Shown: piece after piece, positions 22,701-57,112 of the stretch | How positions within the stretch are numbered: position 1 is the stretch's first letter | Layout of the letters: the number at the start of each line of letters is the position of its first letter | Assembly (NCBI GenBank): GCA_951406725.2 | Contig: OX597824.1 | Location: 23,250,001-23,314,000 of the forward strand | DNA from: Octopus vulgaris | Lineage: Eukaryota | Direction of reading: 5' to 3' | DNA: 64,000 bases | Translations under genes and position numbers: made by a program | The notes under the pieces: generated by a model | Seen by the model: only the letters and a program-made list of their open reading frames with translations | Database searches by the model: none | Told to the model about the DNA's origin: nothing

Positions 22701-24775
22701 TATTGTTAAAAATTAGCTAGTTATTTTATTAACTTCAATCACAATTAGGTTAACGTAGAGGAAAACATTCTTGAACACAAACTATCTCCGGATTAGGTTT
22801 CAGACTTAACTACACTGGCCAATTTTTACGCCTAAATACATATTTCTTTAACCACAAGGGGCTAAACACAGAGGACACACAAGGACAGACAAATGGATCA
22901 AGTCGATTATATCGAATCCAGTGAATAACTGGTACTTAATTTATCGACCCCGAAAGGATGAAAGGCAAAGTCGACCCCGACGGAATGTGAACTCAGAATG
23001 TAACGGCAGACGAAATACGGCTACGCATTTCGCCAGGCGTGCTAACGTTTCTGCCAGCTCGCCACTTCATTTACGCCTAAATATAATGTTGTAATACATA
23101 ATGATGCAGTACTTACAATGGAATGATTTCAAACAGATGAGAAAATAACGAGAAATCAAAAATTACTCACTTTATCCCCTTAATTAGAGAGCCTAAGTTG
23201 GTCACAAAAGACACCGAAATAACCACTTACAAGTTACATATTTCGATAGCGTGATAACCGAAGTTCCGTTAACACGTTGGCTCCCAGACGTCCTGCCGGT
23301 GCTGTTAGCGACCTACCGGCCGGTGGGTTTTTTTTCTCTTTGTCATGGGCTTTCTTAAAGCTGGTATGTTCCGATTTCTTTGATTTGTACTTTTGCTTAG
23401 AGAATTTAATAGACTTTATATTTTCGTTTTTCTTCTGATTTCACCATGAAGAAAAAGATTCAATGACAAAATTGTCTCAAACAAAAATAGTTAATTCTTT
23501 TGAAAAAAAAATTATCAATAGAAATAAAAAAATATTTTACTTGCCATGGAAATCAAAATAGTTTTTTCTGAAAAAAGAATTTCGAGATCTTCCAATAGAA
23601 GAGCTAAAATTTTTAATTGACACGGTGTGGTATCTAAGATGCGATATGAACTAGGGTACCAAACGACTCTCCGGTGGGACATGGGTATCTAACACTGCAA
23701 TCCTTGCCTCAGTATAGTGTAAAAATATTACGCCGCTCATGTCAAAATTAGGATATCAAATTGGGACCCTGGGATAAAACGTAAAAATGAGTCTAGAGAC
23801 CCGACGTGTTAACAGTAAAAGCTGTACGGCAGACACGGAAAACATACCCAGAAAATATTGCAGTTTCTCAATAGAGACTATATTAAATAAATGAAAATAT
23901 TAGTAAATTATGACAATTTAAATTCAAAATTGTATTTAATATTTTTTTATATAGTTCTAAATACAATTTTGTGAAGACTAGAAAATGGTTAATGTAGACC
24001 GAATTAAAATTAAATGCAGTTTTGTAATACAAAAATTCTTAATGGGTTAATTATAAGCAAGGGATGCGAATAGAGGGGTAATTTTTCTAATGAAGAGCGA
24101 TTGTATAAGTCTATATTCCTTCGTTGTAAATTTTGAAGAGTTTTTCTCTAAGTTCTCACGGTTGCCGTTATGTAGCTCTAGATCAAATCACTGATTTAAA
24201 AAAATTCTTAACGACATACTAACTAAAAATCAAAGAGGTTTTTTTTTATGTAAATGCTTTTAGAGTTTTCTATACGTTCGTTCTTCATGTAATGTCGTAT
24301 GTTGTTACATGGCAACTTTTGGCTGTCACATATTGCTTTGAAATCTAGATGAAAATTCTATTTTAAAAATTCAATATTTGTTGCTATTATGCAAAAGGGT
24401 CGAAAGTCCCAACCGCTGCTTTTTCAAAAGGAAAAAAGAAGTTTCATCATTCCACAGGAAAACCGTTGTACTACACTTTGACAATTTTCGATATCTTGCC
24501 GTCTGAAGCAACTAGAGATCCTGATATTTCGACCAAAAGAACCGGCTATTGCAAATAAAAATAAATACTGAATAAAACGTATTTGGCTAAATTTAGACGT
24601 ACGACAGTTTAACATAATAGCAACTAAATAAACATTTCGAAAGCAAGAAAAGAATTTCACTAATAAATATGCACAAAATATTTTGTAAATGTGAATAAAG
24701 GTTATTATATTCAAAACTGGATTTCCTATAACTTTGTAGAGACAGACTGGAAATAAACCGTTGCAAATTTACCAT
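19765..24775 (-). CDS. TUBA: Alpha-tubulin copy 1 (divergent); -1 frameshift in a T-run at 20098-20102, either a pseudogene or a homopolymer assembly error
   Basis: Exons 24773-24775 (ATG|GTAAAT), 21376-21592 (cag|[29 protein letters not shown]...VDLEPSVI|GTAAG) and 19765-20887 (cag|DEIRVGKY...GGGTGSG...EEY*). Exon 3 is 1123 nt versus 1124 in intact copy 2. The exon-1 assignment is inferred from the conserved alpha-tubulin ATG|intron structure and its presence in all three copies. Confidence 0.85.
22845..23065 (-). mobile_element. SINE family B in tubulin copy 1 intron 1
   Basis: Matches 13483-13712. Flanking tttacgcctaaata at ~22826 and ~23070 looks like a TSD. Confidence 0.85.
23273..23808. 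mobile_element. Non-autonomous piggyBac-type MITE (TTAA target, imperfect ~18-bp TIRs)
   Basis: TTAA(23269-72)-CACGTTGGCTCCCAGAC ... GTCTAGAGACCCGACGTG-TTAA(23809-12); no coding capacity. Confidence 0.75.
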
Positions 24776-24888
24776 TGTTGTCGCGCTGTTTCTGTACCGT
24801 TCAAAGTGGAGTCAATAAACAAGACGGTGGTTTTGCTCTTGGCCTTGCTACACATAGTAATATTTCTTACTCTCCTCCTACTCTCACT

Positions 24889-24913
24889 CTTATACTACTC
24901 CGTGTTAGCCAAT
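24889..24913 (-). promoter_or_regulatory. Candidate TATA-like (TATAAG) and CCAAT elements of tubulin copy 1
   Basis: cttata at 24889-94 and ccaat at 24909-13, ~115-135 nt upstream of the ATG. Conserved at 44073-44097 and ~55730-55754, but so is the whole duplicated flank. Confidence 0.35.
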
Positions 24914-25599
24914 TGTGATCGTACGTTCGAAGACAGTCTCAAATTGAAGGGTGTGATTTTGAGGGGGGGTAATACATTAATTTTGATTTAATTTTCTTCT
25001 TTTCAATTTAACACCCCTATAATTACAAAAGGCTAAACTTAACGGAATGGTTCACATATTGAAATAATTTCACCAACTAATAAACCGAAAGAACAGAGAG
25101 GTGGGAGTTGAAGTTCTTGCGTACGGAGCACCAAAAATTTAAATCTGAAAAGGAACAACGAAGATACTATTTGAACGCGATAATTTTTCAAATGAAATTG
25201 GATTATTTTGCTTTTATTCTTCAGTGGTGAAAGGTATGTTTAGAAGATTAATTAAATTCACAAACTGAGAATGATGTTTTAGTTTCAATCTCCATCTGAA
25301 GTCACATCTGTTTATTTAATGCCCTGAAGTAACTTCAGTCTAATGAGTCCGCTGTAGTCATAGAAAAAAAAATGAATATTCAAGCCTCCTATTTTTCTTC
25401 CTTCTACAAAATTAAATTGGGACTGTTATATATAATTTCTATATTTTATTAGTTATGATTTTTTAAAAATTGATCACCAAATACAGAAGCAAGCATAATC
25501 ATACAACTCCGGACACATAATGTCTTTTAATATTTTCCTACATCCCTTCACATCTAGTCCGAAATCCCAGGAGAGTTGCTACAACTTTTGTCCGTCTAA

Positions 25600-25902
25600 A
25601 TCATTGTTTGTTCCTTTTCGAACCCCGCCTGGATCATTAGGGCCGGTTTCCCGGTTTTCTTGGCGTATAGGTTCCCCACCTGGACGGGACGCCGGTCCGT
25701 CCCAGGTGAATTGCAAGATGCAGGAGGGAAGAGTGAAAGTTGTGGCGAAAGAGTCAGCAGAAGTTCGCCATTACCTTCTGCTGGAGCCGCGTGGAGCTTA
25801 GGTGTTTCGCTCATAAACACACACATCGCCCGGTTTGAGATTCGAACCCACGATCCCTCGACCGCGAGTCCGCTGCTCTTACCACTGGGCCATGTGCCTC
25901 CA
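25600..25902 (-). mobile_element. SINE related to family C with Meta-domain-like tail (duplicated at ~46710-47016 and ~56440-56745)
   Basis: Reverse complement: gtggaggcacatggcccagtggtaagagcagcggactcgcggtcga...ggttcgaatc...ggaccggcgtcccgtccagg...aaccgggaaaccggccc. Confidence 0.85.
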
Positions 25903-26029
25903 CGTCTGAATCGTTAAGGCATAATTATCCACAAAGTACAGAAGATCATTTAAAAAGTTGGAATTCATATATTTAAAAAAAAAATTATTACAAGATGCAT
26001 TTATTTTATAATAATTTTGATCTAAAGCC

Positions 26030-27000
26030 AATGTGGACATAGGCAAACCACATCAGGTCGTCTAGGTTCGTATCTAGATAGAGTATTCTATAGGTCAGTT
26101 GATAAGGATAGCATAGGTGATCCATATTTCAAAATGTTCAGCCACATGTAATCCAAATTTGTCATCTACACGGTCGACCTAGATAAGCGTCGTAGACTGG
26201 AAGCGGGTTACTGCAAGCTGAATGCTTCACTCCAGATGCACAAAGATTACACAGACCGGATTCGTGAATTAGTAAAGCTGCCACAAATCTAGTTTAGATT
26301 AGAATCGATTAGGTTTAGGAACCTAATGGCGATAGAGAAAATTGAACAGAGGGAGACTTAGAAACCTACAAGAGGCGCTTAGGAAAGGAATCGCATCAAT
26401 TCTTTAATGCAAAGCATGAAGTCTGCATTGTCAGAGCTAGATGCCTGCTGTGAGACGCGAGAGGAGAAAGCTACGAGATGGAACAAGTGATGGAGGTGCA
26501 ACGTGGCAACAAAACCACCGTTCGGTTTTTGGTGGACCATAATTGGTGCATGCTACTCGAGCGACTCTCAGCAAGGGAGACAAAATGTTGCAAGAAGCCG
26601 CGGAAATACGGGCAGCAATAATTAACTGCACGGGATATAAAGCGCCTGATTTTGATGGTTTACCCTACGAGCTTTACTTTTGCTTGTAAAACTTGCTCGG
26701 AAACCTCTTGGCATCAGGTAACAGAACGGGAAATTTTCTAGTTCTGTGGGCCGAAGAGCGGTAACGTTGCTGAGAAAGGGTTCAAACAGGATGAACCACA
26801 TAGATAATTTCTGGCCCATAACATTGCTAAATGCAGATGTCAAAGTTTCGGCCAGTGTTGGAAAATAGGTTGGTTGTCACTTGTCAATGGTTTCATTGGT
26901 GATGCGCAAATTTTCACCATCTATCTACGATATCCACCATCTCATTGTGATACATCATAGAGAGGTCGAATAAAGAGCGTAGCATAGGTGGGTCCTTGAT
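26030..27000 (+). mobile_element. Decayed Tx1/L1-clade LINE ORF2 relic (end of endonuclease to start of RT)
   Basis: Fragments YLDRVF, AGYCKLNASL, EVQRGNKTTVRFL, APDFDGLPYELY and DNFWPITLLNADVKV, with many stops and frameshifts. Duplicated at ~47610-49150 and partly at 56870-57043. Confidence 0.75.
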
Positions 27001-27361
27001 CATTGCAAACCCTTCAAGGCAGTGTCCCAGCATGGCTGCAGTCCAATGTCTGACGAAATAAAAGATAAAAAATAAGATAAAAGATAGTTAAACCAAGAAA
27101 AAGTTCAGGTAGCTGTCACACTCGAATAGTAGCACATATTCTTTCACTAATTCTTTTAGGTGTCAGTGTAAATGCGAAGAGATATGGGAATATTCTTGCT
27201 CCCTTCAAATTTTGACCCTTCGGAACCCCAAGAATGTAACAGGTGGTGTCAGATGTTTCTGTTCCAGCAAAAATATGGACTGAAATAGCGTGAAATGAAG
27301 CGCTCTGCTGAAGGGCGCAGCACTTCGTTCCGTTCAAGTATTGAACCACAACTTCCCATGT

Positions 27362-27443
27362 TGTTTTATTATTACCCACAAGGGGCGAACACAGATGGGA
27401 CAATACATTCTGATGATGGGGTCAGACAAACGAATGGGTTTTT
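27362..27443 (-). mobile_element. 82-bp retroposed 3' tail with 14-bp TSD
   Basis: TSD acaacttcccatgt at 27348-27361 and 27444-27457. The insert ends ...gttcgccccttgtgggtaataataaaaca, as does 44286-46217. Confidence 0.8.
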
Positions 27444-27589
27444 ACAACTTCCCATGTGGAATCCTAAGCACCAAACCACACATCCCCATATGCTTATCTT
27501 CTATATTTTCCTTGTTTCAGCATTTGGATTGCTGTTATGCTAGAGTACCAACCTTGAATAATTTAGTAGAATAGATTTACACACACACA

Positions 27590-28984: not shown

Positions 28985-29835
28985 TCAATAGAACCTCGCA
29001 CCATTGTACGAATAATGTGCTGTCTCGAAGTACTAGTGGAAATGGGCAGTATGAGCTCGCAAACGCACTCCCAACAAGCGAAACACATTGTTAGCTTTCA
29101 CAGGCTGTTTTCCCCCGTTTGGAGGTGAAGCGTTTATATTTTGTGTAGGTTGTCCTACACAAAATGGATGACGATACATTTTACGAGCTCTGGGAGAGCG
29201 AGGATGAGGCGGACTACGCAAGTTATTCCGTAGAAAGCACGGATGATTATGCGGCCGCGGCACTAAGATGGATGGAATGTTACAACATCAAGCCTGAGGC
29301 AGTCAAGAAGTTCTGGTCATTTCTTCAAGGGGAGGAAGACAGCATGAGGCTAAGTCCCCCCAAGGAGGTGATGGAAGGAATTAAGAGAAGAACAAATGTT
29401 TATAGGACGCTATCTTTGAAGACTAGCAAAATAGAGAGAGCGTCAATGGAAAAGGCATTAAAGCCTAATATGTATAAATTGGCGTACGTTAAGGGCGGAA
29501 GAAGGTTTGGAACGGTGGAGGCGCAGTTTGTGACTGAGAGCGATGCCAAAATAGACTCGGCGACCACCCTGCAGACGAGTGGATTAGATCTTTTGCCATC
29601 ATAGCTCGGCAAAAGAACGACGGAAATAATGATAAACAGGTTCGACCCGGAAATCAAACCGATGTGGCTCCTGGCTGCGACCTTCGCCAACATAAAAGAA
29701 GAGGTGGCACTATTGGAGTTGGAAGAAAAATGTATCCAGAACTGGTGTGGCAGGGGCGTAAGAGCAACACTCCAGGCCACACCAGCAGATATTAAACAGC
29801 GCTTTCCTTACGGTAAAAAAATAGTTTTTCTGTAA
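28985..29835 (+). mobile_element. Tx1/L1-type ORF1-like relic (29164-29835, in-frame TAG at 29602-29604, 3'-truncated)
   Basis: NVYRTLS...LAYVKGGRRFGTVEAQF...LLPS*LGKR aligns by eye with ITYRT*D...ATFVDRGKKYGTLEVRC...MWPTYKGRR of the 44286-46217 element. ORFs 29164 and 29629 are in the same frame. Confidence 0.65.
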
Positions 29836-35793: not shown

Positions 35794-36750
35794 CTACTCT
35801 AAGCAGTAGCATATAAGATGGAGATTGTCGTGGATCAACCTGCCCGGGATAGGGCACTTTGCGCTTCCTCTACAAGTCTGTTCACGACACGCGCCAACCT
35901 TTTCGCTAGCACTTTGGCCAAAATCTTTAACTCTGTGTTCAACAGTGTTAGGAGTCTGAAAATTCCTATTTCGTCCCCCTTGCTCGGGTCCTTCCTGATC
36001 AACGCACCAGCCCTCCGCTCGCAGGCTTAGGAATTCTCCCATTCTGCTACCAATTGGTGTAGACGCTGGCCAGTAGGCGCCCGAACAAGACTGGCATACT
36101 GTTATAAAATTCATAGGGTAGACCATCGAGACCCGGCGACTTCTCCTCGGAGCATTCGCCTAGCATCTCGATCACCTCCTTGGCCGTGATTGGGCCTTCA
36201 CAGCACTCAGCTTCTCATGCCGATAGACGCGGGTCACCAGACAGGAAGCCTCTAAGGGCCTCACCATGATTGAGAGCCCCTCCCTCACACATCTCGTCCT
36301 CGACCGAGCTCCCATTGTCATCAATAAGAGACCTTATTGTGGCATCATTCCCACGCTGGATTTCTACCATATGGGCCCATCCGGCAACATTAATTAGCTC
36401 ACGGCCCAATGCGCGCGCTTTAGTCCGAACTCTGCAACCCTTATGTTTGGCTTTGAGATGACGGTCCAAGTCCGTTCTCGCTGCCAAAATGTGGGATGCA
36501 GAGCCCAACCTAAACGCCTTCTCTAGGTCCTTAACTAGTTACCCTTCTATTCTAGCCTTATCTAGTCTTAGTTAGTAGCTAAACCTAACAGACTCGAAAC
36601 GAATGGCTCTCTTGAGGGCGAACCACCACTTGTTATTAACTACAGCGCCGGTTAACGCCCTCTGTACTAGTTCCTCAATCCGGCTACAATATCTCTCGCA
36701 AGTCAAAATAGGTTTGTTTAGCTTCCCGTGCCTCAGGTTTCAAGGGGTGG
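35794..36750 (-). mobile_element. Decayed Tx1/L1-clade LINE ORF2 fragment
   Basis: HLKAKHKGCRVR...EIQRGNDATIRSL, EGPITAKEV, KSPGLDGLPYEFY and FRLLTLLNTELKILAKVLAKRL motifs across frameshifts. Related to the 26030-27000 relic. Confidence 0.8.
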
Positions 36751-37159: not shown

Positions 37160-37665
37160 TAGCCATGAAATTTTGGGGGAGGTGTTCGTCGATTACATCA
37201 CCCCCACCCCCACAGTGTTTTACTGGTACTTAATTTATCGACCCCGAAAGAATGGGAGGAAAAGTCGATCTTGGGGCCTAAACACAGAGAAGACAAACAA
37301 GGACAGACAAACGGATTAAGCTGATTATATCGACCCCAGTCCGTAACTAGTACTTATTTAATCGACCCCGAAAGGATGAAAGGCAAAGTCGACCTCGGCG
37401 GAATTTGAACTCGGAACGTAACGGCAGACGAAATACCTATTTCTTTACTACCCACAAGGGACTGAACACAAAGGGGACAAACAAGGACAGACAAACGGAT
37501 TAAGCCGATTATATCGACCCCAGTACGTAACTGGTACTTATTTAATCGACCCCGAATGGATGAAAGGCAAAGTGTACCTCGGCGGAATTTGAACTCAGAA
37601 CGTAGCGGCACACGAAATACCGCTCAGTATTTCGCCCGGCGTGTTAACGATTCTGCCAGCTCTAT
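37160..37665 (-). mobile_element. SINE family B dimer plus adjacent older B fragment
   Basis: Junction aaagaaata|ggtatttcg on the minus strand at 37437/37438. Confidence 0.85.
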
Positions 37666-40126: not shown

Positions 40127-43100
40127 TTAATATTCTTCTATCTCATCTTCCGTTTCAGCTGAATCAATACCAACTTCTTCATAATCTTTCTCCAACGCAG
40201 CCAAATCTTCGCGCGCTTCCGAAAACTCACCTTCCTCCATACCTTCACCAACATACCAATGAACAAAAGCTCGCTTGGCATACATTAAGTCAAATTTACG
40301 ATTCAGACGGGCCCAAGCGTCAGCAATAGCTGTCGTATTGCTCAGCGAGCACACGGCCCGTTGGACCTTGGCCATATCTCCTCCAGGGACAACGGTTGGG
40401 GATTGGGAATTGATACCAACTTTAAACCCTGTTGGGCACCAATCCACAAACTTGATGGATTTTTTATTTTTAATTGCTGCAATAGCAACGTTAACATCTT
40501 TCGAGACCACATCGCCTCGGAACAACATACAACAAGCCATGTACTTCCCACGGTGAGGGTCACATTTAACCATCTGATTACCGGTTTCAAAGCACGCGTT
40601 TGTTATTTCAGAAACATTTAACTGCTCGTGGTACGCTTTCTCAACCGATATTATTGGTGCATACGAAATCAATGGGAAATGAATACGCGGATAAGGTACC
40701 AGGTTGGTTTGAAACTCGGTTAAATCAACATTAAGGGACCCATCAAACCTTAGAGAAGCAGTAATAGAGCTCACTACCTGAGCAATCGGACGATTAAGGT
40801 TGATGTATCTTGGATACCCAACATCTAAATGCCTTTTACAGATATCATAAATTGCTTCATTGTCGACCATGAAAGCGCAGTCACAATGCTCTAGAGTGGT
40901 ATGAGTGGTTAAGACGGAATTGTACGGTTCTACTACAGCTGTAGAAATTCGTGGTGCCGGATAGACTGAAAATTGAAGCTTTGTCTTTTTACCAAAGTCA
41001 ACACTCAGGCGCTCCATTAGCAGAGACGTAAATCCAGAACCGGTGCCGCCACCGAAACTATGAAAAATCAAGAAGCCCTGGAGGCCAGAGCATTGTTCAG
41101 TTACTTTATGAATTTGGTCACAGACCGAATCAATGATTTCCTTGCCAACGGTATAGTGACCCCTGGCGTAATTGTTGGCTGCATCCTCTTTACCACTGAT
41201 GAGTTGGTTCGGGTGAAATAACTGGCTGTATTTTCCAACGCGTATTTCATCTGGAAAATAAGATTTTGAGCAATAATATATCAAACTGGCAATATAAAAA
41301 TTAAAAGAGTTTTCTTATATTAGAGGAGTATGAAATGTAGAGATTCTCAGACAGTTACTTGCTTATCAGTTCAACAAAATACTTCCATGTACGACATTCC
41401 TCAGAATATACTGCTAACAATACTTACATTCAAATACCGGATACATAAACATTCACTATTCCTCTCACATTTAACCGATTTTATAATCGACACATTTTAC
41501 TGCTGTGATCAGTTCTGTTGTACAACAGAATTTTGAAATATTGTCCAATATTCGAGAAAACGGCGTTCGGAAATATAGCAGTAAAAAAGGAACCACTGCT
41601 TCATCACAAATCTTCGAGTTTTTTTTCCAACAGAAAAACATAGAAGATTGACTAACCAGAACATTAAATGCGCGACAGGGCAATTCCTTAATTTATTTTT
41701 GTAAATACAATTTTGAAACGTTTATACTTACCGATAACTGAGGGCTCCAAATCTACGAATATGGCTCTGGGGACACGTTTCCCAGAGCCTATCTCATGAA
41801 AGAACGTACTAGACGAATCATTAACACCGGAAGATTCAAATGATACTTGACCATTTTGTTGGATTCCATGTTCAAGGCAATAGAGCTCCCAACAAGCGTT
41901 ACCTATTTGGACGCCTGCTTGTCCTATGTGAACGCTGATACATTCTCTCTGAAAAAAAAAAAAAGTTGTATAATAGAATTATTTTAAAAGCTAGAGAAAT
42001 CGGACAAAAGTGGGAGTTGAGCCCAAAAGGGAGCATTGCCGTGGTGTACTGCCTGTTAGAAATAGCAGTCAAATTCCTTCCGATCATACCCTATTGATTA
42101 ACAAAATGTTTATATCACGCGAACTCTAAATTTGGAAAAGATAGAAATGGTAACTGAAACGCATTTTTAACACAAATTTTCGCCAACAAGGTTTCGTGAG
42201 GTTTCAACAAGAGCCATGCAGAGCTACATAAGAACCTTTAAAATGTTTTGGAGAAATGAAAATAACTGCAATAAGTTGTCTGAGAGCTAAACCATTATAC
42301 CACAAGAGATAATAGCACAAGATTTATAAATTCAAATCTAATTAAGCACACAAATATTTTAAAACAACCTTCATGTTTAATGTAAGTATTCCGTTCTACT
42401 TCATTTCAACACCACTTTACATCGAGACAGTTTCTTCCAGTATAGCTGTGGGTCAATCTAGTAAACGGAAATGGATTTAGCGGTGGCCATGTGGACGCCC
42501 GTCAAATAAACTGTAAGGGAAAGTGCACAATGACAATATTTTTTAAAATGTGCGCTCCCTTACGAAAACTATATCAGTTAAGCAAATGACCTTCCCTAAA
42601 TTCTTTAAAAAATAATCTAACACTTTAGACAATTATTGCAGTTCTGAGTATATAAAACAAATTTAGCTGGAGCCAAATGCGTAAACCAAAATAAGATAAA
42701 TCTGCCTCTTCAGTTCTCCAGAATCACATTCGAAAACAGACTCGTACATCAATATTTATCGTTAGACACCAGAAAGATCAAAAACTAAAAGAAATTAAAT
42801 ATCTCGGTCAAATGAAAGGCGATCAAAGGAAAACGATACACATGAAAATAAAACTCGACTAAAGCTAAAATATTCTCCACAGTTTCTTTACGATCTGCTG
42901 GGGTAGCTCTTCCCGAGAGATTTATACACGAAGCAGTTAAAGTAGGATTGAAATTAGTCACTCCTTTTACACTATTTTAGACATTTTTTGAAACCCGACG
43001 TGTTAACAGTAAAAGCTATACGGCAGACACGGAAAACATACCCAGAAAATATTGCAGTTTCACAATAGAGACTATATTAAGTAAATGAAAATATTAGTAA

Positions 43101-43959
43101 ATTCTGACAAACGATTTAAATTCAAAATTGTATTTAATATTTTTTTATATAGTGCTAAATACAATTTTGTGAAGATTAGATGGTTAATGTAGACCGAATT
43201 GAAAGTAAATACAGTTTCGTAATACAAAAATTGTTAATGGGTTAATTCTAAGCAAGGGATGCGAATAGAGGGGTAATGTTTCTAATGAAGAGGGATTGTG
43301 TAAGTCTATATTCCTTCGTTGTAAATTTTGAAGAGTTTTTCTCTAAGTTCTCACGGTCGTCGTCATGTAGCTCTAGATCAAATCACTGATTTAAAAAAAT
43401 TCTTAACGACATACTAACTAAAAATCAAAGGTTTTTTTCTAAATGCTTTTAAAGTTTTCTATACGTCTGTTTCTCATGTAATGTAGTATGCGGTTACATG
43501 GCAACTTTTGGCTGTCATGTTGCTTTGAAATCTAGATGAAAATTCTATTTTATAAAATTCAATATTTTTTGCTATTATGCAAAAGGGTCGAAAGTCCCAA
43601 ACGCTGCTTTTTCAGAAGGAAAAAAGTTTCACCATTCCACAGAAAAACCGTTGTACTGCACTTTGACAATTTTCGATATCTTGCCATCTGAAGCAACTAG
43701 AGATACAATATTTCGACCAAAAGAACCGGCTATTGCAAATAAAAATAAATACTGAATAAAACGTATTTGGCTAAATTTAGACGCACGAAAGTTTAACAGA
43801 ATAGCAACCATATAAACATTGCGAAAGCAAGAAAAGAATTTCACTAATAAATCTGAACAAAATATTTTGTAAATGTGAATAAAGGTTATTATATTCAAAA
43901 CTGGATTTCCTATAACTTTGTAGAGACAGACTGGAAATAAACCGTTGCAAATTTACCAT
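40127..43959 (-). CDS. TUBA: Alpha-tubulin copy 2 (divergent, intact, 447 aa)
   Basis: Exons 43957-43959 (ATG|GT), 41732-41948 (217 nt) and 40127-41250 (1124 nt), all GT-AG. Spliced product [13 protein letters not shown]...[13 protein letters not shown]...GGGTGSG...[10 protein letters not shown]...[16 protein letters not shown]...EEY* has no stop or frameshift. Confidence 0.93.
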
Positions 43960-44285
43960 TGTTGTTGCGCTGTTTCTGTACCGTTCAAAGTGGAGTCAAT
44001 AAACAAGACGGTGGTTTTGCTCTTGGCCTTGCTACAAATAGTAATATTTCTTACTCTCCTCCTACTCTTACTCTTATACTACTCCGTGTTAGCCAATTGT
44101 GATCGTATGTTCGAAGACAGTCTCAAACTGAAGGGTGTGATTTTGAGGGGGGTAATAAATTAATTTTGATTTAATTTTCTTTTTTTCAATTTAACACCCC
44201 TATAACTACAAATGGCTAAACTTAACGGAATGGTTCACATATTGAAATAATTTCATCAACTAATAAACCGAAAGAACAGAGAGGT

Positions 44286-46217
44286 TGTTTTATTATTACC
44301 CACAAGGGGCGAACATAGATGGGACAATACAATCGGGAAAATGAATAATGAATTATGAAGTTTGTACAATGTGGTGTAATGCCCACTCAATTCCCCGAAA
44401 TCGAGCGGTTACATTTCGTCATTTGTTTTTTATTCGTCAACAATATTTTCCAAATAAAACATTTTTATACATTTTCAACATACATTTCAAAAATTTTACA
44501 AAGTTCAACATTTTTTTTTTCCAGAATTTAAAGTTCTTTTTATCATTTCCAAATTAAAGTTTTCACAATACCTTTTCTTTTATATATACTCCATTATCTC
44601 TACCAAATCTGAGTAAACTTCCATCGTTCGTGGCCACCTTGTAAGTCGGCATTTCATATGTTTTGACACGTTCTTGCCAGCTGCCTCGATGAACGCCTCG
44701 GCGTCGTTCTCGTGGACGAGTGCACCTGTTTCTTTCCATTCGGTGCCCATCCTGACCCACGTATATCCATTTGTTACGTTTATTAAATCTTCCATCTCCT
44801 CACAGTGCCTGTGATGGATCAACGTTCCATAGTATTTGAATTTTCTATTCGTACCTACGTTTTCTCTAGTTTTTCTCTTAGGACTTACTTCCTCTTTTTT
44901 CTCCTCCCTCGGTTTCTCTCTTTCTCTCTTTTTGCTTTCTCTTCTTTCTTTTTCCTTCTCTTGTCTTTTTGGCTCTTTGTCTGCCATCTCTCTACCCTGT
45001 GCCTTAAGTTCCTTTCCTGTTGTTTCTTTTCCTTTTTGCATACCATCTTTTCCTTTCTCTTGGTTCTGTTCCTTCTCTTGTTCTTTTCCTGCTTTTTCTC
45101 TTTCCTTTAATGTACTTTCCTTTTCTTTCTCTTGCTTCTGCCTTGGCTCCTTCTCCACTACTTCTGCACCCTGTGAATTTTGTTCCTTTTCTACTATCTT
45201 CTTCCCTTTGTTTTCATTTTCCTTCAGTGCGCTGTTACTTCCCTTCTCTTGTTGTTTCTCCGTTATTTCCTTTTCCTTGTTTTCGCTGTTCTTTCCTTCG
45301 TGTTCGTTTTCCTTCTCTCCACTTTGTGTCTCTTTTTGCTCCGCTGTGAATTCATACAGCGGGCATTCCTTTTTATGTGCCCTCTTGATCCGCACAGGTA
45401 GCAATTCGGTTTTCTGCCTTCCACTATTACACTAATTGTTTTCTCGTTTTCTATTTCTATTTGGAAGGGAAATCTTTCGATGTCTTCCATTGTGGCCATC
45501 AGCCACAACTCTACTCCGAATCCCTTCCAATTTACAACGTTCGTCTCCTTAATTGACCCTATTTCTACTTCCTCTTTTGCTGCCCCAATAATGGCTGTTA
45601 CCAGCATTTCTGTTTTAATATCTGGGGGCACCTTTGGGACTCTTACCCGTACCCCTCGTCTTCCTTTATACGTCGGCCACATGGTGAAATTTTCCGCTTT
45701 CAGGACAGTGGAAGCCAATGAGGCCGCCACTTCCTTTGTTGCGCATCTCACCTCCAACGTACCATATTTCTTCCCTCTGTCTACAAAAGTCGCTTTTTTC
45801 ATGATGTCCCCCAGACATTTCTCTATTTCTTCAATCGTCACTCTCACCAGTTTTCTCGTGTTTCTATCTTACGTTCTATACGTTATCGTCTTGTTATTTC
45901 TCTCTTCTATTGTTTCCACAGGCGGGACCAGCTTCACGCTGTCACCTTCCCTTTTGACGTACTTCTCGTATTCCTTCAATTGTTCTTTTCTAATGAACAC
46001 TTCTTTTATTCTAAGTGACTCGTCACTTTTTGTTGTGGCGACCCCCGCGTAAGTCTCCATGACTTGAGGGTCGACACACCTTCTATAAAAGGTTCAAACA
46101 CGCAGCGGCAAACGCCTCGCGCGATTCAATTTTTTGACAATTTTTAACAGTTTTTTTTTCCAATTTTCACATACAAAATAACTCACAACACACGTGGGTA
46201 GATTTCCTCCAGGTGTT
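44286..46217 (-). mobile_element. ORF1-only non-LTR retro-element (Tx1/L1-type ORF1 with CCHC zinc knuckle), 1932 bp, 18-bp TSD
   Basis: TSD ccgaaagaacagagaggt at 44268-44285 and 46218-46235; empty sites at ~25085 and ~55925. One broken ORF 46060-44580 (stop 45869-71; -1 in T-run 45370-74) restores C-YL-C-GSRG-H-IKKE-C, followed by a K/E-rich region. No RT or endonuclease motifs seen. Confidence 0.85.
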
Positions 46218-47062
46218 CCGAAAGAACAGAGAGGTGGGAGTTGAAGTTCTTGCATACGGAGCACCAAAATTTAAATCTGAAAAGGAACAACGAAGATACT
46301 ATTTGAACGTGATAATTTTTCAAATGAAATTGGATTATTTTGCTTTTATTCTTTAGTGGTGAAAGGTATGTTTAGAAGATTTAATTAAATTCACAAACTG
46401 AGAATGACGTTTTAGTTTCAATCTCCATCTGAAGTCACTTCTGTTTATTTAATGCCCTGAAGTAACTTCAGTTTAATGAGTCCGCTGTAGTCATCGAAAA
46501 AAATGAATATTCAAGCCTCCTATTTTTCTTCCTTCTACAAAATTAACTTGGGAATGTTATGAGTTATGATTTTTTAAAGATTGATCACCAAATACAGAAG
46601 CAAGCATAATCATACAACTCCGGACACATAATGTCTTTTAATGTTTTCCTACATCCCTTCACATCTATTCCGAAATCCCAGGAGAGTTGCTACAACTTTT
46701 GTCCGTCTGAATCATTGTTTGTTCCTTTTCGAACCCCGCCTGGATCATTAGGGCCGGTTTCCCGGTTTTCTTGGCGTATAGGTTCCCCACCTTGGACGGG
46801 ACCGGTCCGTCCCAGGTGAACTGCAAGGTGCAGGAGGAAAGAGTGAGAAAAAGTTGTGGTGAAAGAGTCAGCAGAAGTTCGCCATTACCTTCTGCTGGAG
46901 CCGCGTGGAGCTTAGGTGTTTCGCTCATAAACACACACATCGCCCGGTCTGTGATTCGAACCCACGATCCCTCGACCGCGAGTCCGCTGCTCTAACCACT
47001 GGGCCATGTGCCTCCACATCTGAATCATTAAGGCATAATTATCCACAAAGTACAGAAGATCA

Positions 47063-47529
47063 TGTAAAGGGAACTGGTTGCTTCTTTACACTTTTGGGGT
47101 GCAACACAATCTCCTTTCTTTTTGTTTCTAGAAACTACCAGTCAGGAACGAAAAGCAACTTTAGAAATATATAATTCTTTATTCTCTTATTCAACAATGA
47201 AACACAATGGTATACTGGTATCCATTCTTACAACAATTCAGCAGCAATAGATAGGTTAAATCCCAAGCGTCTTGGACAGGAGAATAGGTTGATCACACGT
47301 ATGAAAATACGTCCTTTCTCTTCGATCGCCGTGCCTCAAGTCCCCGAACGCTATTAAGGAACGCTATAGAATTTATTCTTCAGTCTCTAGCGCATGTGCA
47401 TGGGGAAACTTCTTTATGCCTTTCCAGAAGGCTCCAACCCAGCACACGCACACTGAAGAAAGACGTTCCGCACACGCACACTGAAGAATGACGTTGCGTG
47501 TGCGCACACTGAAATATGACGTCACTACA
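47063..47529. mobile_element. Solo LTR (TGTA...TACA, 467 bp, 4-bp TSD ATCA)
   Basis: ATCA(47059-62)|TGTAAAGG...GTCACTACA|ATCA(47530-33). Empty site gaagatcatttaaaa at ~25941 and ~56784. Confidence 0.85.
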
Positions 47530-47609: not shown

Positions 47610-49150
47610 AGCCAGTGTGCACATAGGCAAACCGCATCAGGTCGTGTAGGTTCGTATCTAGATAGAGTATTCTACAGGTCAGTTGATAATGATAGCATAG
47701 GTGATCCATATTTCAAAATGTTCAGCTACACGTAATCCAAATTTGTCATCTACACGGTCGACCTAGATAAGCGTCGTAGACTGGAAGCCGGTTACTGCAA
47801 AAATTTTCCAACCAAATTTTCGAAAAAACCTTTTGAAAATTTTCCTCAAAAATCTTTGAAAATTTTTCCTAAACATTTTGGAAAACCCCGTGTATCTCCC
47901 GCAAACTTCGGATATTTCCGGTAAATTCCGGCAATCTCCAGCAATTTCCGGTGATCTCGGACAATTTGCGGCAAACTCCGGTAATCTACGGCAATTTCCG
48001 GCAATATCTGGTTATTTCCGGCAATCTCCGGCAATTTCCGATAATTTCCGGCTATCTCCAGCAATGTCTGGTAATTAACGACAATTTCCGGCAATCTTCG
48101 GCAATCTCCGGCAATCTTTTTTTCAAAAATTTTATAAAATTTTGCAAAAAAATTTACAATTTTCCTTAAAAATTTTTTTTGAAAATTTTCCTCAAAAATA
48201 TTTGAAAATTTTCCCAAAATTCTTTGAAAATTTTCCTAAAAAACTTTTGGAAATTCTCAAAAATTTTTGAAAATTTTCCCCCAAAATTTTTGAAAATTTT
48301 AAAAAAATTTTTGAAAATTTTTCTCAAAAATTTTTGAAAATTTTACCCCAAAATTTTTGAAAAAAGTTTTTGAAAATTTTTGAAAATATCCCTCAAAAAC
48401 TTTTGAAAAATTTTTTGAAAATTAGTAAATCTGCCACAAAAGATGAGTTGTCCTTTCTAGTTTAGATTAGAATCGATTAAGTTGAAGAACCTAAAGGCGA
48501 TAGAGAAAATTGAACAGAGGGAGACTGAGAAACCTACAAGAGGCGCTTAGGAAAGGAATCGCATCAATTCTTTAATGCAAAGCATGAAGTCTGCATTGTC
48601 AGATCTAGATGCCTGCTGTGAGACGCGAGAGGAGAAAGCTGAGAGATGGAACCGAGTGATGGAGGTGCAACGTGGCAACAAAACCACCGTTCGGTTTTTG
48701 GTGGACCATAATTGGTGCATGCTAGTCGAGCGACTCTCAGCAAGGGAAACAAAGTGTTGCAAGAAGCCCCGGAAATACGGGAATCAATAATTAACCGCAC
48801 GGGATATGAAGCGTCTGATTTTGATGGTTTACCCTACGAGCTTTACTTTTGCTTGCAAAACTTGCTCGGAAACCTCTTGGCATCAGGTAACAGAACGGGA
48901 AATTTTCTAGTTCTGTGGGCCGAAGAGCGGTAACGTTGCTGAGAAAGGGTTCAAACAGGATGAACCACATAGATAATTTCTGGCCCATAACATTGCTAAA
49001 TGCAGATGTCAAAGTTTCGGCCAGTGTTGGAAAATAGGTTGGTTGTCACTTGTCAATGGTTTCATTGGTGATGCGCAAATATTCACCATCTATCCACGAC
49101 ATCCACCATGTCATTGTGATACATCATAGAGAGGTGGAATAAAGAGAGTA
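47610..49150 (+). mobile_element. Duplicate of the Tx1/L1 ORF2 relic, interrupted by a satellite-like insert
   Basis: Colinear with 26030-27000. Confidence 0.75.
47800..48422. repeat. Satellite-like insert: TTTTGAAAA(A)TTTT repeats flanking a 10-bp (TCCGGCAATY)n array
   Basis: Directly visible. Absent from unit 1; the first ~65 bp are present at 57045-57112. Confidence 0.85.
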
Positions 49151-49813: not shown

Positions 49814-52800
49814 CAAAATGCCCAGTAGAACCAACTGTCTTGCCATAAATTATAGTCATATAGATATTCCTCTAACTCGTTTCAGTCATGTGACTGGGGT
49901 CATGCTGGAGCACCGCCTTTAGTCGAGCAAATCGACCCCAGGACTTATTCTTTGTAAGCCTTGTACTTATTCTATCAGTCTACGTTACGGGGACGTAAAC
50001 ACACCAGCATCGGTTGTCAAGTGATGTTGGGGGAGACAAACAGACACAAACATACTTATATGTAAATATACATATATACGACGGGCTTCTTTCAGTTTCC
50101 GTCTACCAAATCCACTCACAAGGCTTTGGTCGCCCCGAGGCTATAGTAGAAGACTCTTACCCAAGGTGCCACGCAGTGGGACTGAACCCGGTAGTAGAAG
50201 ACTCTTGCCCAAGGTGCCCCGCAGTGGGACTGAACCCGGAACCATGTGGTTCGTACGCAAGCTACTTACCATACAGTCACTCAGGATAGGCAATAGGCGC
50301 AAAATTAAGAAAACACGGGCACGACAATAACAAATATCATATACAGACACACGTGTATAGGTATATTGGCACACAGTTATATGCGTGGGCTAAACCTGCT
50401 TCCTAACCATAGGGCTTTGGGTTCAGTCCAATTAAGTAGCACCTTGGGCAAGTACCTTCTACTATAGTCTCTGGCCGACCAACGCCTCGTGTGGATTTGG
50501 TGGAGGGAAACGTAAAGAAGCCTGTCGTGTGTGTCACTACCGCTTGACAACCGGTGGTGTGTGTACATAGCCTAGCGGTTAGGCAAAAAGAGTTCGATAG
50601 AATAAGTACCAGGTTTAAAAAAGGGAAATTAGTCCTGGGATAAAGTCATTCGACTGAAACTCTTCAAGCCGGTGCCCCAGCATGGCCACAGTCTAATACA
50701 GCTGACAAGGATATTTATGTCATTTACACACTGAAAGTTTCAAAAAAAAAAAAAAAAAATGCTTAATGGCTAAAGCTTAGTGGCGTTTCGAAACTACGTC
50801 CTCAGTTAGGCGTAGGAGTGGCTGTGTGGTTAAGTAGCTTGCTTACCAACCACATGGTTCCGGGTTCAGTCCACTGCGTGGCACTTTGGGCAAGTGTCTA
50901 TAGCTTCAGGCTGACCAAAGCATTGGGAGTAGATTTGGTAGACGGAACCTGAAAGAAGCCCGTAGTATGTGTGTGTCCCAACATCACTTGAGAACCGATG
51001 CGTCCCCGTAACTTTGCGGTTCGGCAAAAAGAGACCAATAGAATAAGTACTAGGCTTACAAAGAACAAGTCTTGGGGTCGATTTGCTCGACTAAAGGCGG
51101 TGCTCCAGTATGGCCACAGTCAAATGACAAGTAAAAGGAGAGTAAAGAGTTTAAATTCTGCCAAGGTCAACTTCGCTTTTCATCTTCTGGCGGTCGGTAA
51201 AGTAAGTAGCACTTGAGCATTTCTGTCGATGTAATCGCCAAGCCTCCTAAAAGAATTTCAGACCTGGTGCCCATAGTAATAAAATTAAAGGAGGCACGCT
51301 AGCAGAATTGTTACCGCACCGGAAAAATGCCTAACGGAATGTTGTTAGTTTTTACGCTCTAAGCTTAAAACACTGCTCATCCGTTCAGGGTTGATAAAAT
51401 ATGTACAAGAAGAGCTACCGCGGTCGATATAATCGACTAACCACTCTCCCCAGATTTGCTGAGCCTTACAGCAAAAAATAGTTACCGTTGACTAACAAAA
51501 TGTGTCCCAGTATCTGGATACTTGATTGATTCCAAATACGAAGAGAAAATCTATTCAAGAATTAGAGAAATATGTCAATTGATTGTGATAAGCTTTTATT
51601 ATTTCAAAGAAATTCGAAAAAAAAATGTTATTTCGAAAAGTAATTCTTTATGTTTAGTATGCAACACAAACAGGAAAACAACGCAATTTTGATATTTCAA
51701 AAGCTAATTCGTTAGGTTAAATTAATATTGGAAGACTACACACGTGTGTATATGTATATATAAGACCCACCATTTCTAATAAAATTTAAGATTTAGTATT
51801 CTTCAATCTCATCTCCCGTTTCAGCTGTGTCAATACCGACTTCTTCATAATCTTTCTCCAACGCAGCCAAATCTTCGCGCGCTTCTGTGAACTCTCCTTC
51901 CTCCATACCTTCACCAACATACCAATGAACAAAAGCTCGCTTGGCATACATTAAGTCAAATTTAAAATTTAGACGGGCCCAAGCTTCAGCAATAGCTGTC
52001 GTATTGTTCAGCATACATACGGCCCGTTGAACCTCAGCCATGTCTCCCCCAGGGATAACAGTTGGGCGTTGGGAATTGATACCAACTTTAAACCCTGTTG
52101 GGCACCAATCCACAAACTGAATTTGTTTTATCTTTTTAATTGCTGCAATAGCAGCGTTAACATCTTTCGAGACCACATCGCCTCGGTACAACAGACAACA
52201 AGCCATGTACTTCCCACGGCGAGGGTCACATTTAACCATCTGATTACCGGTTTCAAAGCACGCGTTTGTTATTTCAGAAACAAGCAACTGCTCGTGGTAC
52301 GCTTTCTCAACCGATATTATTGGTGCATACGAAATCAATGGGAAATGAATACGTGGATAAGGTACAAGGTTGGTTTGAAACTCGGTTAAATCGGCATTAA
52401 TGGACCCATGAAACCTTAGAGAAGCAGTAATAGAGCTCACTACCTGAGCAATCGGACGATTAAGGTTGATGTATCTTGGATACCCAACATCTAAATGCAT
52501 TTTACAGATATCATAATTGCTTCATTGTCGACCATGAAAGCGCAGTCACAATGATCTAGAGTGGTATGAGTGGTTAAGACGGAATTGTACGGTTCTACTA
52601 CAGCTGTATAAATTCGTGGTGCCGGATAGACTGAAAATTGAAGCTTTGTCTTTTTACCAAAGTCAACACTCAGGCGCTCCATTAGCAGAGACGTAAAACC
52701 AGAACCGGTGCCGCCACCGAAACTATGAAAAATCAAGAAGCCCTGGAGGCCAGAGCATTGTTCTGTTACTTTATGAATTTGGTCACAGACCGAATCAATG

Positions 52801-55800
52801 ATTTCCTTGCCAACGGTATAGTGACCCCTGGCGTAATTGTTGGCTGCATCCTCTTTACCACTGATGAGTTGGTTCGGGTGAAATAACTGGCTGTATTTTC
52901 CAACGCGTATTTCATCTGGAAAATAAGATTTTGAGCAATAATATATCAAACTGGCAATATAAAAATTAAAAGAGTTTTCTTATATTAGAGGAGTATGAAA
53001 TGTAGAGATTCTCAGACAGTTACTTGCTTTATCAGTTCAACAAAATACTTCCATGTACGACATTCCTCAGAATATACTGCTAACAATACTTACATTCAAA
53101 TACCGGATACATAAACATTCACTATTCCTCTCACATTTAACCGATTTTATAATCGACACATTTTACTGCTGTGATCAGTTCTGTTGTACAACAGAATTTT
53201 GAAATATTGTCCAATATTCAAGAAAACGGCGTTCGGAAATATAGCAGTAAAAAAGGAACCACTGCTTCATCACAAATCTTCGAGTTTTTTTTCCAACACA
53301 GAAAAACATAGAAGATTGACTAACCAGAACATTAAATGCGCGACAGGGCAATTCCTTAATTTATTTTTGTAAATACAATTTTGAAACGTTTATACTTACC
53401 GATAACTGAGGGCTCTAAATCTACGAATATGGCTCTGGGGACACGTTTCCCAGAGCCTATCTCATGAAAGAACGTGCTAGACGAATCATTAACACCGGAA
53501 GATTCAAATGATACTTGACCATTTTGTTGGATTCCATGTTCAAGGCAATAGAGCTCCCAACAGGCGTTACCTATTTGGACGCCTGCTTGTCCTATGTGAA
53601 CGCTGATACATTCTCTCTGAAAAGAAAAAAAAGTTGTATAATAGAATTATTTTACAAGCTAGAGAAATCGGACAAAAGTGGGAGTTGAACCCAAAAGGGA
53701 GCATCGCCGTGGTGTACTGCCTGTTAGAAATAGCTGTCAAATTCCTTCCGATCATACCCTATTGATTAACAAAATGTTTATATCACGCGAACTCTAAATT
53801 TGGAAAAGATAGAAATGGTAACTGAAACGCATTTTTAACACAAATTTTCGCCAACAAGAGTCATGCAGAGCTACATAAGAACCTTTAAAATGGTATTTTT
53901 GGAGAAATGAAAATAACTGCAATAAGTTGTCTGAGAGCTAAACCATTATACCACAAGAGATAATAGCACAAGATTTATAAATTCAAATCTAATTAAGCAC
54001 ACAAATATTTTAAAACAACCTTCATGTTTAATGTAAGTATTCCGTTCTACTTCATTTCAACACCACTTTACATTGAGACAGTTTCTTCCAGTATAGCTGT
54101 GGGTCAATCTAGTAAACGGAAATGGATTTAGCGGTGGCCATGTGGACGCCCGTCAAATAAACTGTAAGGGAAAGTGCACGATGACAATATTTTTTTTAAT
54201 GTGCGCTCCCTTACGAAAACTATATCAGTTAAGTAAATGGCCTTCCATAAATTCTTTAAAAAAATAATCTAACACTTTAGACAATTATTGCAGTTCTGAG
54301 TATATAAAACAAATTTGGCTGGAGCCAAATGAGTAAACCAAAATAAGATAAATCTGCCTCTTCAGTTCTCCAGAATCACATTCGAAAACAGACTCGTACA
54401 TCAATATTTATCGTTAGACACCAGAAAGATCAAAAACTAAAAGAAATTAAATACCTCGGTCAAATGAAAGGCGATCAAAGGAAAACGATACACATGAAAA
54501 TGAAACTCGACTAAAGCTAAAATATTCTCCACAGTTTCTTTACGATCTGCTGGGGTAGTTCTTCCCGAGAGATTTATACACGAAGCAGTTAAAGTAGGAT
54601 TGAAATTAGTCACTCCTTTTACACTATTTAAGACATTTTTTGAAACCCGACGTGTTAACAGTAAAAGCTATACGGCAGACACGGAAAACATACCCAGAAA
54701 ATATTGCAGTTTCACGATAGAGACTATATTAAATAAATGAAAATATTAGTAAATTCTGACAAACGATTTAAATTCAAAATTGTATTTAATATTTTTTTAT
54801 ATAGTGCTAAATACAATTTTGTGAAGATTAGATGGTTAATGTAGACCGAATTGAAAGTAAATACAGTTTCGTAATACAAAAATTGTTAATGGGTTAATTC
54901 TAAGCAAGGGATGCGAATAGAGGGGTAATGTTTCTAATGAAGAGGGATTGTGTAAGTCTATATTCCTTCGTTGTAAATTTTGAAGAGATTTTCTCTAAGT
55001 TTTCACGGTCGCACTTATGTAGCTCTAGACAAAAATCACTGATTTTTAAAAATTCTTAACGACATACTGACTAAAAATCAAAGGTTTTTTTTTCTAAATG
55101 CTTTTAGAGTTTTCTATACGTTTGTTTCTCATGTAATGTCGTATGTTGTTACATGGCAACTTTTGGCTGTCACATGTTGCTTTCAAATCTAGATGAAAAT
55201 TCTGTTTTAAAACTTCAATATTTGTCGCTATTATGCAAGAGAGTCGAAAGTCCCAAACTTTTTCAGAAGGAAAAAATAAAGTTTCACCATTCCACAGCAA
55301 AACCGTTGTACTACACTTTGACAATTTTCGATATCTTGCCATCTGAAGCAACTAGAGATCCTGTTATTTCGACCAAAAGAACCGGCTATTGCAAATAAAA
55401 ATAAATACTGAATAAAACGTATTTGGCTAAATTTAGACGCACGAAAGTTTAACAGAATAGCAACCATATAAACATTGCGAAAGCAAGAAAAGAATTTCAC
55501 TAATAAATATGCACAAAATATTTTGTAAATGTGAATAAAGGTTATTATATTCAAAACTGGATTTCCCATAAATTTGGAGAGGCAGACGAGAAATAAACCG
55601 TAGCAAATTTACCATTGTTGTCGCGCTGTTTCTGTACCGTTCAAAGTGGAGTCAATAAACAAGACGGTGGTTTTGCTCTTGGCCTTGCTACAAATAGTAA
55701 TATTTTTTTACTCTCCTCCTACTCTTACTCTTATACTACTCCGTGTTAGCCAATGGTGATCGTATGTTCGAAGACAGTCTCAAACTGAAGGGTGTGATTT

Positions 55801-57112
55801 TGAGGGGAGTAATACATTAATTTTGATTTAATTTTCTTCTTTTCAATTTAACACCCCTATAATTACAAAAGGCTAAACTTAACGGAATGGTTCACATATT
55901 GAAATAATTTCATCAACTAATAAACCGAAAGAACAGAGAGGTGGGAGTTGAAGTTTTTGCATACGGAGCATCAAAAATTTAAATCTAAAAAGGAACAACG
56001 AAGATACTATTTGAACGCGATAATTTTTCAAATGAAATTGGATTATTTTGCTTTTATTCTTCAGTGGTGAAAGGTATGTTTAGAAGATTTAATTAAATTC
56101 ACAAACTGAGAATGATGTTTTAGTTTCAATCTCCATCTGAAGTCACTTCTGTTTATTTAATGCCCTGAAGTAACTTCAGTTTAATGAGTCCGCTGTAGTC
56201 ACGAAAAAAGAATGAATATTCAAGCCTCCTATTTTTCTTCCTTCTACAAAATTAAATTGGGACTGTTATATATAATTTCTATCTTTTATTAGTTATGATT
56301 TTTTAAAAATTGATCACCAAATACAGAAGCAAGCATAATCATACAACTCCGGACACATAATGTCTTTTAATATTTTCCTACATCCCTTCACATCTAGTCC
56401 GAAATCCCAGGAGAGTTGATACAACTTTTGTCCGTCTGAATCATTGTTTGTTCCTTTTCGAACCCCGCCTGGATCATTAGGGCCGGTTTCCCGGTTTTCT
56501 TGGAGTATAGGTTCCCCACCTTGGACGGGACCGGTCCGTCGCAGGTGAGCTGCAAGATGCAGGAGGAAAGAGTGAGAGAAAGTTGTGGTGAAAGAGTCAG
56601 CAGAAGATCGCCATTAACTTTTGCCGGAGCCGTGTGGAGCTTAAGTGTTTCGCTCATAAACACACACATCGCCCGGTCTGAGATTCGATCACGCGATCCC
56701 TCGACCGCGAGTCCGCTGCTCTAACCACTAGACCATGTGCCTTCACGTCTGAATCATTAAGGCATAATTATCCACAAAGTACAGAAGATCATTTAAAATA
56801 TTTGGAATTCACATATTTATTTAAAAAAATTATTACAAGATGCATTTATTTTATAATAATTTTGATCATAGGCAAACCGCATCAGGTCGTCTAGGTTCGT
56901 ATCTAGATAGAGTATTCTATAGGTCAGTTGATAATGATAGCATAGGTGATCCATATTTCAAAATGTTCAGCCACACGTAATACAAATTTGTCATCTACAC
57001 GGTCGACCTAGATAAGCGTCGTAGTCTGGAAGCGGGTTACTGCTAAAATTTTCCACCAAAATTTTCGAAAAAACCTTTTGAAAATTTTTGAAAAGGTTTT
57101 TGAAAATTTTCC
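49814..57112. repeat. Segmental duplication unit 3
   Basis: Colinear with 17839-26215; shares the intron-1 deletion and the TTTTGAAAA insert start with unit 2. Confidence 0.92.
51793..55615 (-). pseudogene. TUBA: Alpha-tubulin copy 3, probable pseudogene (-1 frameshift at 52515-52516 plus T7-loop substitutions)
   Basis: Exons 55613-55615, 53400-53616 and 51793-52915 (1123 nt). atcataattgc versus atcataaattgc in copies 1 and 2. [10 protein letters not shown] versus [10 protein letters not shown], and PRIYTA versus PRISTA. Confidence 0.75.

Follow-up and report, generated by a model that had tools for sequence, protein, structure and literature searches.

How did an insertion that encodes an ORF1-like protein, and no enzyme for its own copying, come to lie some 310 nt before the putative start codon of an alpha-tubulin gene in Octopus vulgaris? 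The window analysed here is a 64,000-nt stretch of contig OX597824.1. An earlier note, made from the letters of this window, had described a complete 1932-bp insertion with an 18-bp TSD that is absent from both paralogous sites, and each part of that description was borne out. The features on which the argument draws are as follows (window coordinates).

40127-43959, minus strand: host alpha-tubulin gene, on the same strand as the insertion and downstream of it; its exon 2 starts at 41948 and its last exon spans 41314-40127
46218-46235, minus strand: 5' TSD, 18 bp, the same letters as 44268-44285; single at the empty paralogous sites 25085 and 55925
46203-46217, minus strand: 5' head, which reproduces the landing site in the Helitron, three Helitron-side bases upstream of the nick included
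46061-46217, minus strand: leader, 157 nt with the head included, common to family A copies
44580-46060, minus strand: ORF1, with two predicted RRM-like domains, one CCHC knuckle (from 45403), a K/E-rich linker and a conserved C-terminal region
44286-44579, minus strand: 3' trailer, 294 nt
44286-44334, minus strand: 3' tail, common to the autonomous LINE and other ORF1-only families
44268-44285, minus strand: 3' TSD, 18 bp, pairing with 46218-46235
27362-27443, minus strand: 3' end of a 5'-truncated partner LINE, 82 nt, 95% identical over 84 nt to the partner 3' end
29164-29835, plus strand: distant truncated ORF1-like relic, outside family A

The focal insert runs from 46217 to 44286 on the minus strand (1932 bp) and is bounded by CCGAAAGAACAGAGAGGT at both 44268-44285 and 46218-46235. 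The two paralogous tubulin units in the window, with flanks 93–95% identical to the focal unit, each contain one copy of this motif (25085, 55925) in continuous DNA that lacks the insert. The leader, ORF and trailer had been put at about 160 nt, 490 codons and 290 nt; they measure 157 nt, 493 aa (in intact natural copies) and 294 nt. ORF1 begins with the ATG at 46060 and its stop ends at 44580. As the note had stated, the 1932-bp focal insert contains one stop and one homopolymer frameshift, and no RT or endonuclease. The stop is an in-frame TAA (45871-45869) private to the focal copy, and the frameshift falls in an A-run (45374-45370). In 27 of the 30 copies that were scored this run has 4, 5 or 6 letters, so either slippage or an assembly error may account for the frameshift. 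Contigs from three of four sequencing runs skip the insertion; these may be paralogous tubulin units instead.

Three tandem alpha-tubulin units occupy the window (19765-25954, 40127-47068 and 51793-56797). Two further units bearing the insertion lie 0.9 and 3.4 Mb away on the same contig, placing the three loci (L001-L003) at 23.29, 24.23 and 26.66 Mb with flanks 97–98% identical. Since these flanks match over 4.7 kb, the three represent a single insertion that was later duplicated with the tubulin unit, and the insertion marks a recent three-way duplication in the alpha-tubulin cluster. The first exon of the gene appears to consist of the ATG at 43959 followed by a GT donor, and putative tubulin promoter motifs were spotted by eye near 44097-44073. 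The same decayed L1/Tx1-type ORF2 relic is found in each tubulin unit (26030-27000, 47652-49028 and 56897-57040) and therefore predates the tubulin duplications.

To place the insertion among its relatives, we searched the octopus genome with the focal element. The search returned 79 matches, of which at least 33 reach ≥91% identity along almost the entire element, revealing a multi-copy ORF1-only family with its own TSDs, of the kind that the note had proposed to look for. The copy number of this family, here called family A, is a lower bound, as 40 of 650 candidates were scored. The note had allowed that all other copies might run into ORF2; none of 20 divergent A-like loci, picked from protein and DNA searches, does so. 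Members of family A have TSDs of 13–20 bp and include 5'-truncated copies, and six other A copies in the train set (described below) retain an intact 493-aa frame. An ORF1-only unit without ORF2, with a 3' end shared with a LINE, with TSDs and with 5' truncation, has the properties of an ORF1-present non-autonomous LINE. A pattern search of the genome with the leader gave 14 matches, which are not taken as a copy count because the search missed the focal leader type. Several ORF1-only units have been deposited as uncharacterised Octopus proteins, and close protein matches are labelled Octopus vulgaris. Family A singletons showed no RNA-editing marks (A>G to T>C rate ratio 0.97), nor did the focal copy, and the predicted RNA structures of tail and head did not support special stability (z-scores -0.2, -0.9 and +0.6).

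Intact ORF1 contains one zinc knuckle, matching Pfam zf-CCHC above the cut-off. Folding from a single sequence was unusable (pLDDT 38); a model built from 15 natural ORF1 cores reached pLDDT 81. The best PDB matches of this model are tandem-RRM proteins such as IMP3 RRM12 (E 2e-5, with low TM-scores of about 0.3), and the neighbours of the ORF1 protein in the Atlas are CCHC proteins of eukaryotes, among them a ZCCHC3-type cluster with two RBDs plus CCHC at 0.90. ORF1 is thus modelled as two RRM-like domains plus CCHC. The dN/dS comparison proposed in the note indicates purifying selection, with values against sister families of 0.14 (A/B) and 0.11 (A/C) over 238 core codons at dS above 1. Within family A, 15 pairs of the six intact copies gave 0.16–0.59, values that are biased low because intact copies alone entered. 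Given the sister-family values of 0.11–0.14, the ORF1 protein is held under selection without ORF2 in cis.

The note had suggested tracing the autonomous partner by its tail, and the focal 3' tail is also that of an L1/Tx1-type LINE: it is identical at 47 of 47 nt to the end of a 5.2-kb LINE, and the tail pattern has 401 exact genome matches, compared with 0 for a reversed control. Copies of this LINE are 5.0–5.3 kb long, with their own ORF1 and an 1131-aa ORF2 containing endonuclease, RT and zf-RVT. The closest solved relative of ORF2 is human L1 ORF2p (E 5e-64, versus 1e-25 for R2), and a homologue at 26% identity is labelled 'Transposon TX1 uncharacterized 149 kDa protein'. An APE endonuclease, an RT, a zinc-binding domain and placement in the L1 group are the architecture of the Tx1 clade. 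We classify the partner as an L1/Tx1-type LINE, with the Tx1 label taken from its architecture and targeting.

Within the window, the match of the focal tail to 27362-27443 is real (49 of 51 nt), and this piece of LINE is flanked by its own 14-bp TSD (27348-27361 and 27444-27457). The relics at 26030-27000 and 35794-36750, which had been proposed as the partner, are not: they show 25–56% protein and 66–78% DNA identity to the true partner's ORF2. Nor does 29164-29835 belong to family A: this distant ORF1-like relic is 28–36% identical in amino acids to all eight ORF1 types tested, ends before the knuckle and has no tail. The likeness of the focal tail to SINE tails was confirmed at 85–88% over about 41 nt. 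An abundant SINE-like repeat at 14641-14680, 37445-37484 and near 49437 carries this LINE-like 3' motif and may use a related LINE.

The ORF1 proteins of family A and the partner are 33–35% identical, and A is therefore no recent deletion of the partner. Thus, the comparison with HAL1 made in the note is valid for the ORF1-only architecture and finds no support as to an origin by simple deletion of the present partner. HAL1 in the strict sense derives from a mammalian-type L1 through ORF2 loss and has an L1 ORF1p; Pfam and PDB sequence searches gave no match to that protein and pointed to tandem RRM plus CCHC instead. Among the ORF1 comparisons and the 20 divergent A-like loci, no close ORF2-bearing parent for A was found. 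Because tail and target are both shared with the partner, A was likely copied by the partner's reverse transcriptase, with mobilisation in trans by its ORF2.

That target is a transposon of another kind. Of 30 A loci, 23 lie inside a Helitron-like element of about 0.75–1.05 kb. Its shell starts with TC, ends in a hairpin plus CTAG, has junctions between A and T and gives more than 1100 dispersed site matches, as is typical of a non-autonomous Helitron. By exact pattern, type-1 sites number 1004 empty and 114 filled, type-2 sites 136 empty, and all controls gave 0. At one position in this Helitron, 36–39 nt behind a TATA-like box, we found trains of elements joined head to tail: family A, six other ORF1-only families (B-G, 1.67–1.99 kb) and the LINE. 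These ORF1-only families are deeply diverged, with 27–37% identity between groups. The trains were described from 35 regions plus 8 more, and their family mix is no random sample because regions were picked via A, C and tail searches. The longest has 23 units, 22 C copies and one LINE, in a single shell.

Several further features of these hosts and their cargo were recorded. An Rfam scan of four host loci gave 29 matches, all to AT-repeat miRNA models below gathering scores. The segment of about 300 bp that separates type-1 from type-2 shells, in the middle of the type-1 Helitron (L005:3430-3735), is a decayed ORF1 fragment, 39% identical to the partner ORF1 (E 8e-8); the Helitron therefore captured part of a relative of its invaders. 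Five empty landing sites spaced at about 2 kb (C1:77347964-77360628) suggest a tandem Helitron array. A second repeat (L163, L164, L174, L202, L225, L240) holds stacked LINE, family C and an A-like subfamily (46–74% aa), with the insertions at nearby fixed positions. In family C, a shared C-run length truncates ORF1 at about 59 aa in 59 of 80 copies (L111-L121, L183-L202 and others), and intact copies are scattered over the C tree; possible causes are homopolymer errors of a systematic kind, slippage by the RT or a cheater lineage that does without ORF1. Six sense-strand A>G changes within 100 nt are common to C1b_1, C1b_2, C1d_1, C9_1 and C10b_2, and family C singletons have a 2.2-fold A>G excess, both compatible with retrotransposed RNA editing.

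The focal copy is an off-target stray of this site-targeted family and, being off-target, records the 5' end of its source RNA. That end consists of three Helitron-side bases followed by landing-site sequence. In trains, the tail of the neighbour replaces those three bases; the focal head fits the pattern of the empty Helitron site (1004 genome matches) and not the tail-side junction. Eight full-length copies outside the Helitron have readable 5' ends, of which six carry host-side bases, none carries tail-side bases and two are ambiguous. Because all six clear strays carry host-side bases, front-seat copies are the likely source of strays. A rare host-side variant, found at 4 empty sites, also occurs in two front copies that sit on separate contigs and have the same head, consistent with an RNA-borne flank. 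Targeting is leaky: 23 of 28 isolated tails examined lie outside the Helitron, with a weak consensus of C before and R after the junction.

We therefore consider it probable that the focal insertion is an off-target copy of the ORF1-only family A, copied by the LINE, and that its source was the front copy of an ordered Helitron train. The conserved ORF1 protein of A would package its own RNA (cis use), and partner ORF2 would insert that RNA by target-primed reverse transcription, as the 13–20-bp TSDs and 5' truncations suggest. Transcription would begin in the host, a few bases before the element, and each RNA would thus bear a copy of the landing site; this copy would restore the site at the head of the train. 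The element at the front, right behind the TATA-like box of the Helitron, would be the one transcribed, and newcomers would for that reason displace the previous source. In this way a front-seat element would have given rise to the focal copy, which landed upstream of alpha-tubulin, was later multiplied when the tubulin unit duplicated and today has a broken frame.

How the landing site is chosen is a separate matter. We propose tentatively, at rather less than even confidence, that the LINE and its dependants target a transcription start and not a sequence, inserting a few bases downstream of an active TATA-type start. The TATA-like box is intact in 29 of 32 empty shells and element 5' ends fall 32–37 nt after it, at or beyond the usual range; spacing alone suggests its promoter role. 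Should the proposal be right, the RNA would carry and rebuild the start site and the front copy alone would be expressed, so that at least seven ORF1-only lineages would compete for one borrowed Helitron promoter. Each train would then be a dated record of competition for that promoter, and the focal copy would have missed the Helitron and ended at a promoter-like place before a tubulin gene.

A somewhat unlikely alternative retains the same family and partner and supposes internal promoters that start a few bases upstream, an endonuclease that picks the site by sequence and a TATA-like box that is incidental. The type-1 and type-2 landing sites are unrelated sequences at the same spacing from the same TATA box, which argues against choice by sequence. 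Additionally, the type-2 sequence has 10 front junctions where it lies 38–39 nt behind the box and 0 where it lies about 300 nt further away, though it is several times commoner at that further position and present there in 13 of 20 type-1 shells checked. Shell age may explain part of this difference because type-1 shells are slightly younger (97.3 vs 95.7%). Heads also drift widely and are still used. In favour of the alternative, the host bases at 5' ends come from at least three different host contexts, GTGTG..AGTTA-like motifs are common to leaders across families, and many heads hold a AACATGGCGG string, which we take to resemble a YY1 site. Off-target sites overall are also without TATA enrichment, with TATA-like motifs at -43 to -30 present at 3 of the 20 sites off the Helitron, where the background rate is 11%. 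However, inner copies should then yield tail-side bases, and 0 of 6 clear strays have them. The available text of one study of Tx1 elements credits their target choice to the endonuclease (PMC4494074), in keeping with a site picked by sequence.

Read by eye, three full-length strays, the focal copy included, show TATA-like words at -39 to -41. Full-length elements also form small stacks away from any Helitron, at L236:4544 and L224:299, each about 39 nt behind a TATA-like word that has a CCAAT-like word upstream of it; these words are possibly host promoters.

The trains are ordered by age, with younger lineages 5' and the LINE towards 3'. Within trains, 76 of 79 pairs, which are not independent of one another, have the ORF1-only unit upstream of the LINE. 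Family C forms a ladder of subfamilies whose direction agrees between trains of different contigs. Tested from the root, C order gave 40 versus 5 pairs, and the root shifted once 47 new copies were added; because of this instability we used the root-free distance from one ladder end. On that axis 46 of 49 pairs in the initial set followed the order, as did 222 of 269 untied pairs from held-out trains; when the first C copy was compared with the last, 12 of 14 trains agreed. Towards its 3' end the ladder resembles outgroups more (rho -0.70) and private changes become more numerous (rho -0.50), which makes this the older end. Without the 22-copy train the held-out order was not significant (24 vs 16 pairs, p 0.22), and a nearest-neighbour age proxy in held-out trains opposed it (106 vs 165). 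Family E, nearly invariant at 0.1% divergence, is at or near the front wherever found.

As the main source of the trains, in place of repeated retrotransposition, rolling-circle copying of cargo by the Helitron or unequal crossing-over is improbable. Eleven filled shells are scattered among 20 empty ones at no more than 97% identity, and in C4c and C4d shells only 92–93% alike surround cargo that is 99% alike. Since filled shells scatter and exceed their cargo in divergence, the shells are the older component and the train elements arrived separately. Mixed families and subfamily ladders recur across chromosomes, the nearest relative of 34 of 71 C copies is in another train, and truncated train members carry their own 13–16-bp TSDs. 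In contrast, some neighbouring C copies are 99.9–100% identical, with runs of them in the 22-copy train and 13 identical pairs among 80 C copies, which indicates that local duplication contributes; blocks of F, A and LINE also recur at about 99% in two trains. Rolling-circle copying and crossing-over are thus largely refuted for spread between loci, with a possible local role in long homogeneous runs.

Lastly, an ORF1-only structure and a modelled fold common to ZCCHC3-type proteins could also describe an isolated or recent deletion inside the co-resident LINE, or a defunct retrocopy of a ZCCHC3-like gene of the host, a reading refuted by at least 33 near-full-length matches, an ORF1 33–35% identical to that of the partner, purifying selection between sister families, the LINE tail and the 0 of 20 A-like loci that run into ORF2.

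Repeated retrotransposition of family A and its companions into a Helitron lets one ask, in nature, why a non-autonomous LINE retains an ORF1, here under measurable purifying selection in several lineages. It also bears on how a LINE may pick position over sequence and how parasites of a parasite may compete for one promoter. The ordered trains date subfamily succession directly, and repeat annotators would misname ORF1-only units as genes or LINE fragments. In the literature searched, with most subscription journals and Repbase Reports outside it, we found no account of a Helitron that holds trains of ORF1-only Tx1-type elements. L1-Tx1 and Helitron families of O. vulgaris are counted in a 2026 repeat annotation, among them 13 recently active L1-Tx1 families left undescribed, and nesting is not described in its available text (PMC13282606). 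The family, the partner and the host are each of known kinds; what is new, within that literature, is their combination.

The comparisons that follow refer to the available portions of the cited papers. ORF1-present non-autonomous LINEs are an established class that includes HAL1, HeT-A and Ag-Sponge (PMC5786205, PMC5753468, PMC13534243), derived from the L1, Jockey and CR1 clades (PMC5786205, PMC5753468). The octopus families resemble them in having ORF1 alone, a LINE 3' end and what is probably mobilisation in trans. Unlike them, at least seven deeply diverged octopus families share one L1/Tx1-type tail and are site-targeted, and their ORF1 is far from the ORF1 of the present partner. About 40% of Drosophila telomeric families carry ORF1 only (PMC13534243). 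The HeT-A/TART/TAHRE arrays are, like the octopus trains, head to tail, mixed from ORF1-only and full elements, and grown at the 5' end. Whereas those arrays belong to the Jockey clade and lie at chromosome ends (PMC13534243), the octopus trains form TSDs at many internal sites in a dispersed transposon.

The closest parallels are in crocodilians and Xenopus, where Tx1 elements target DNA transposons and have tandem dependants and host-derived 5' extensions: Tx1-Mar with SINEU in Mariner-N4_AMi, Tx1L in Tx1D and Tx1-9_AMi in Harbingers (PMC4494074). As in the octopus, a Tx1-type LINE and its dependants occupy a non-autonomous DNA transposon by sequential tandem insertion with host 5' extensions, and transcription from the host transposon is possible. 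In contrast, the octopus host is Helitron-like, a term absent as 'Helitron' from the main text of that paper, and the octopus dependants are protein-coding and stand in age-ordered trains of up to 23 units.
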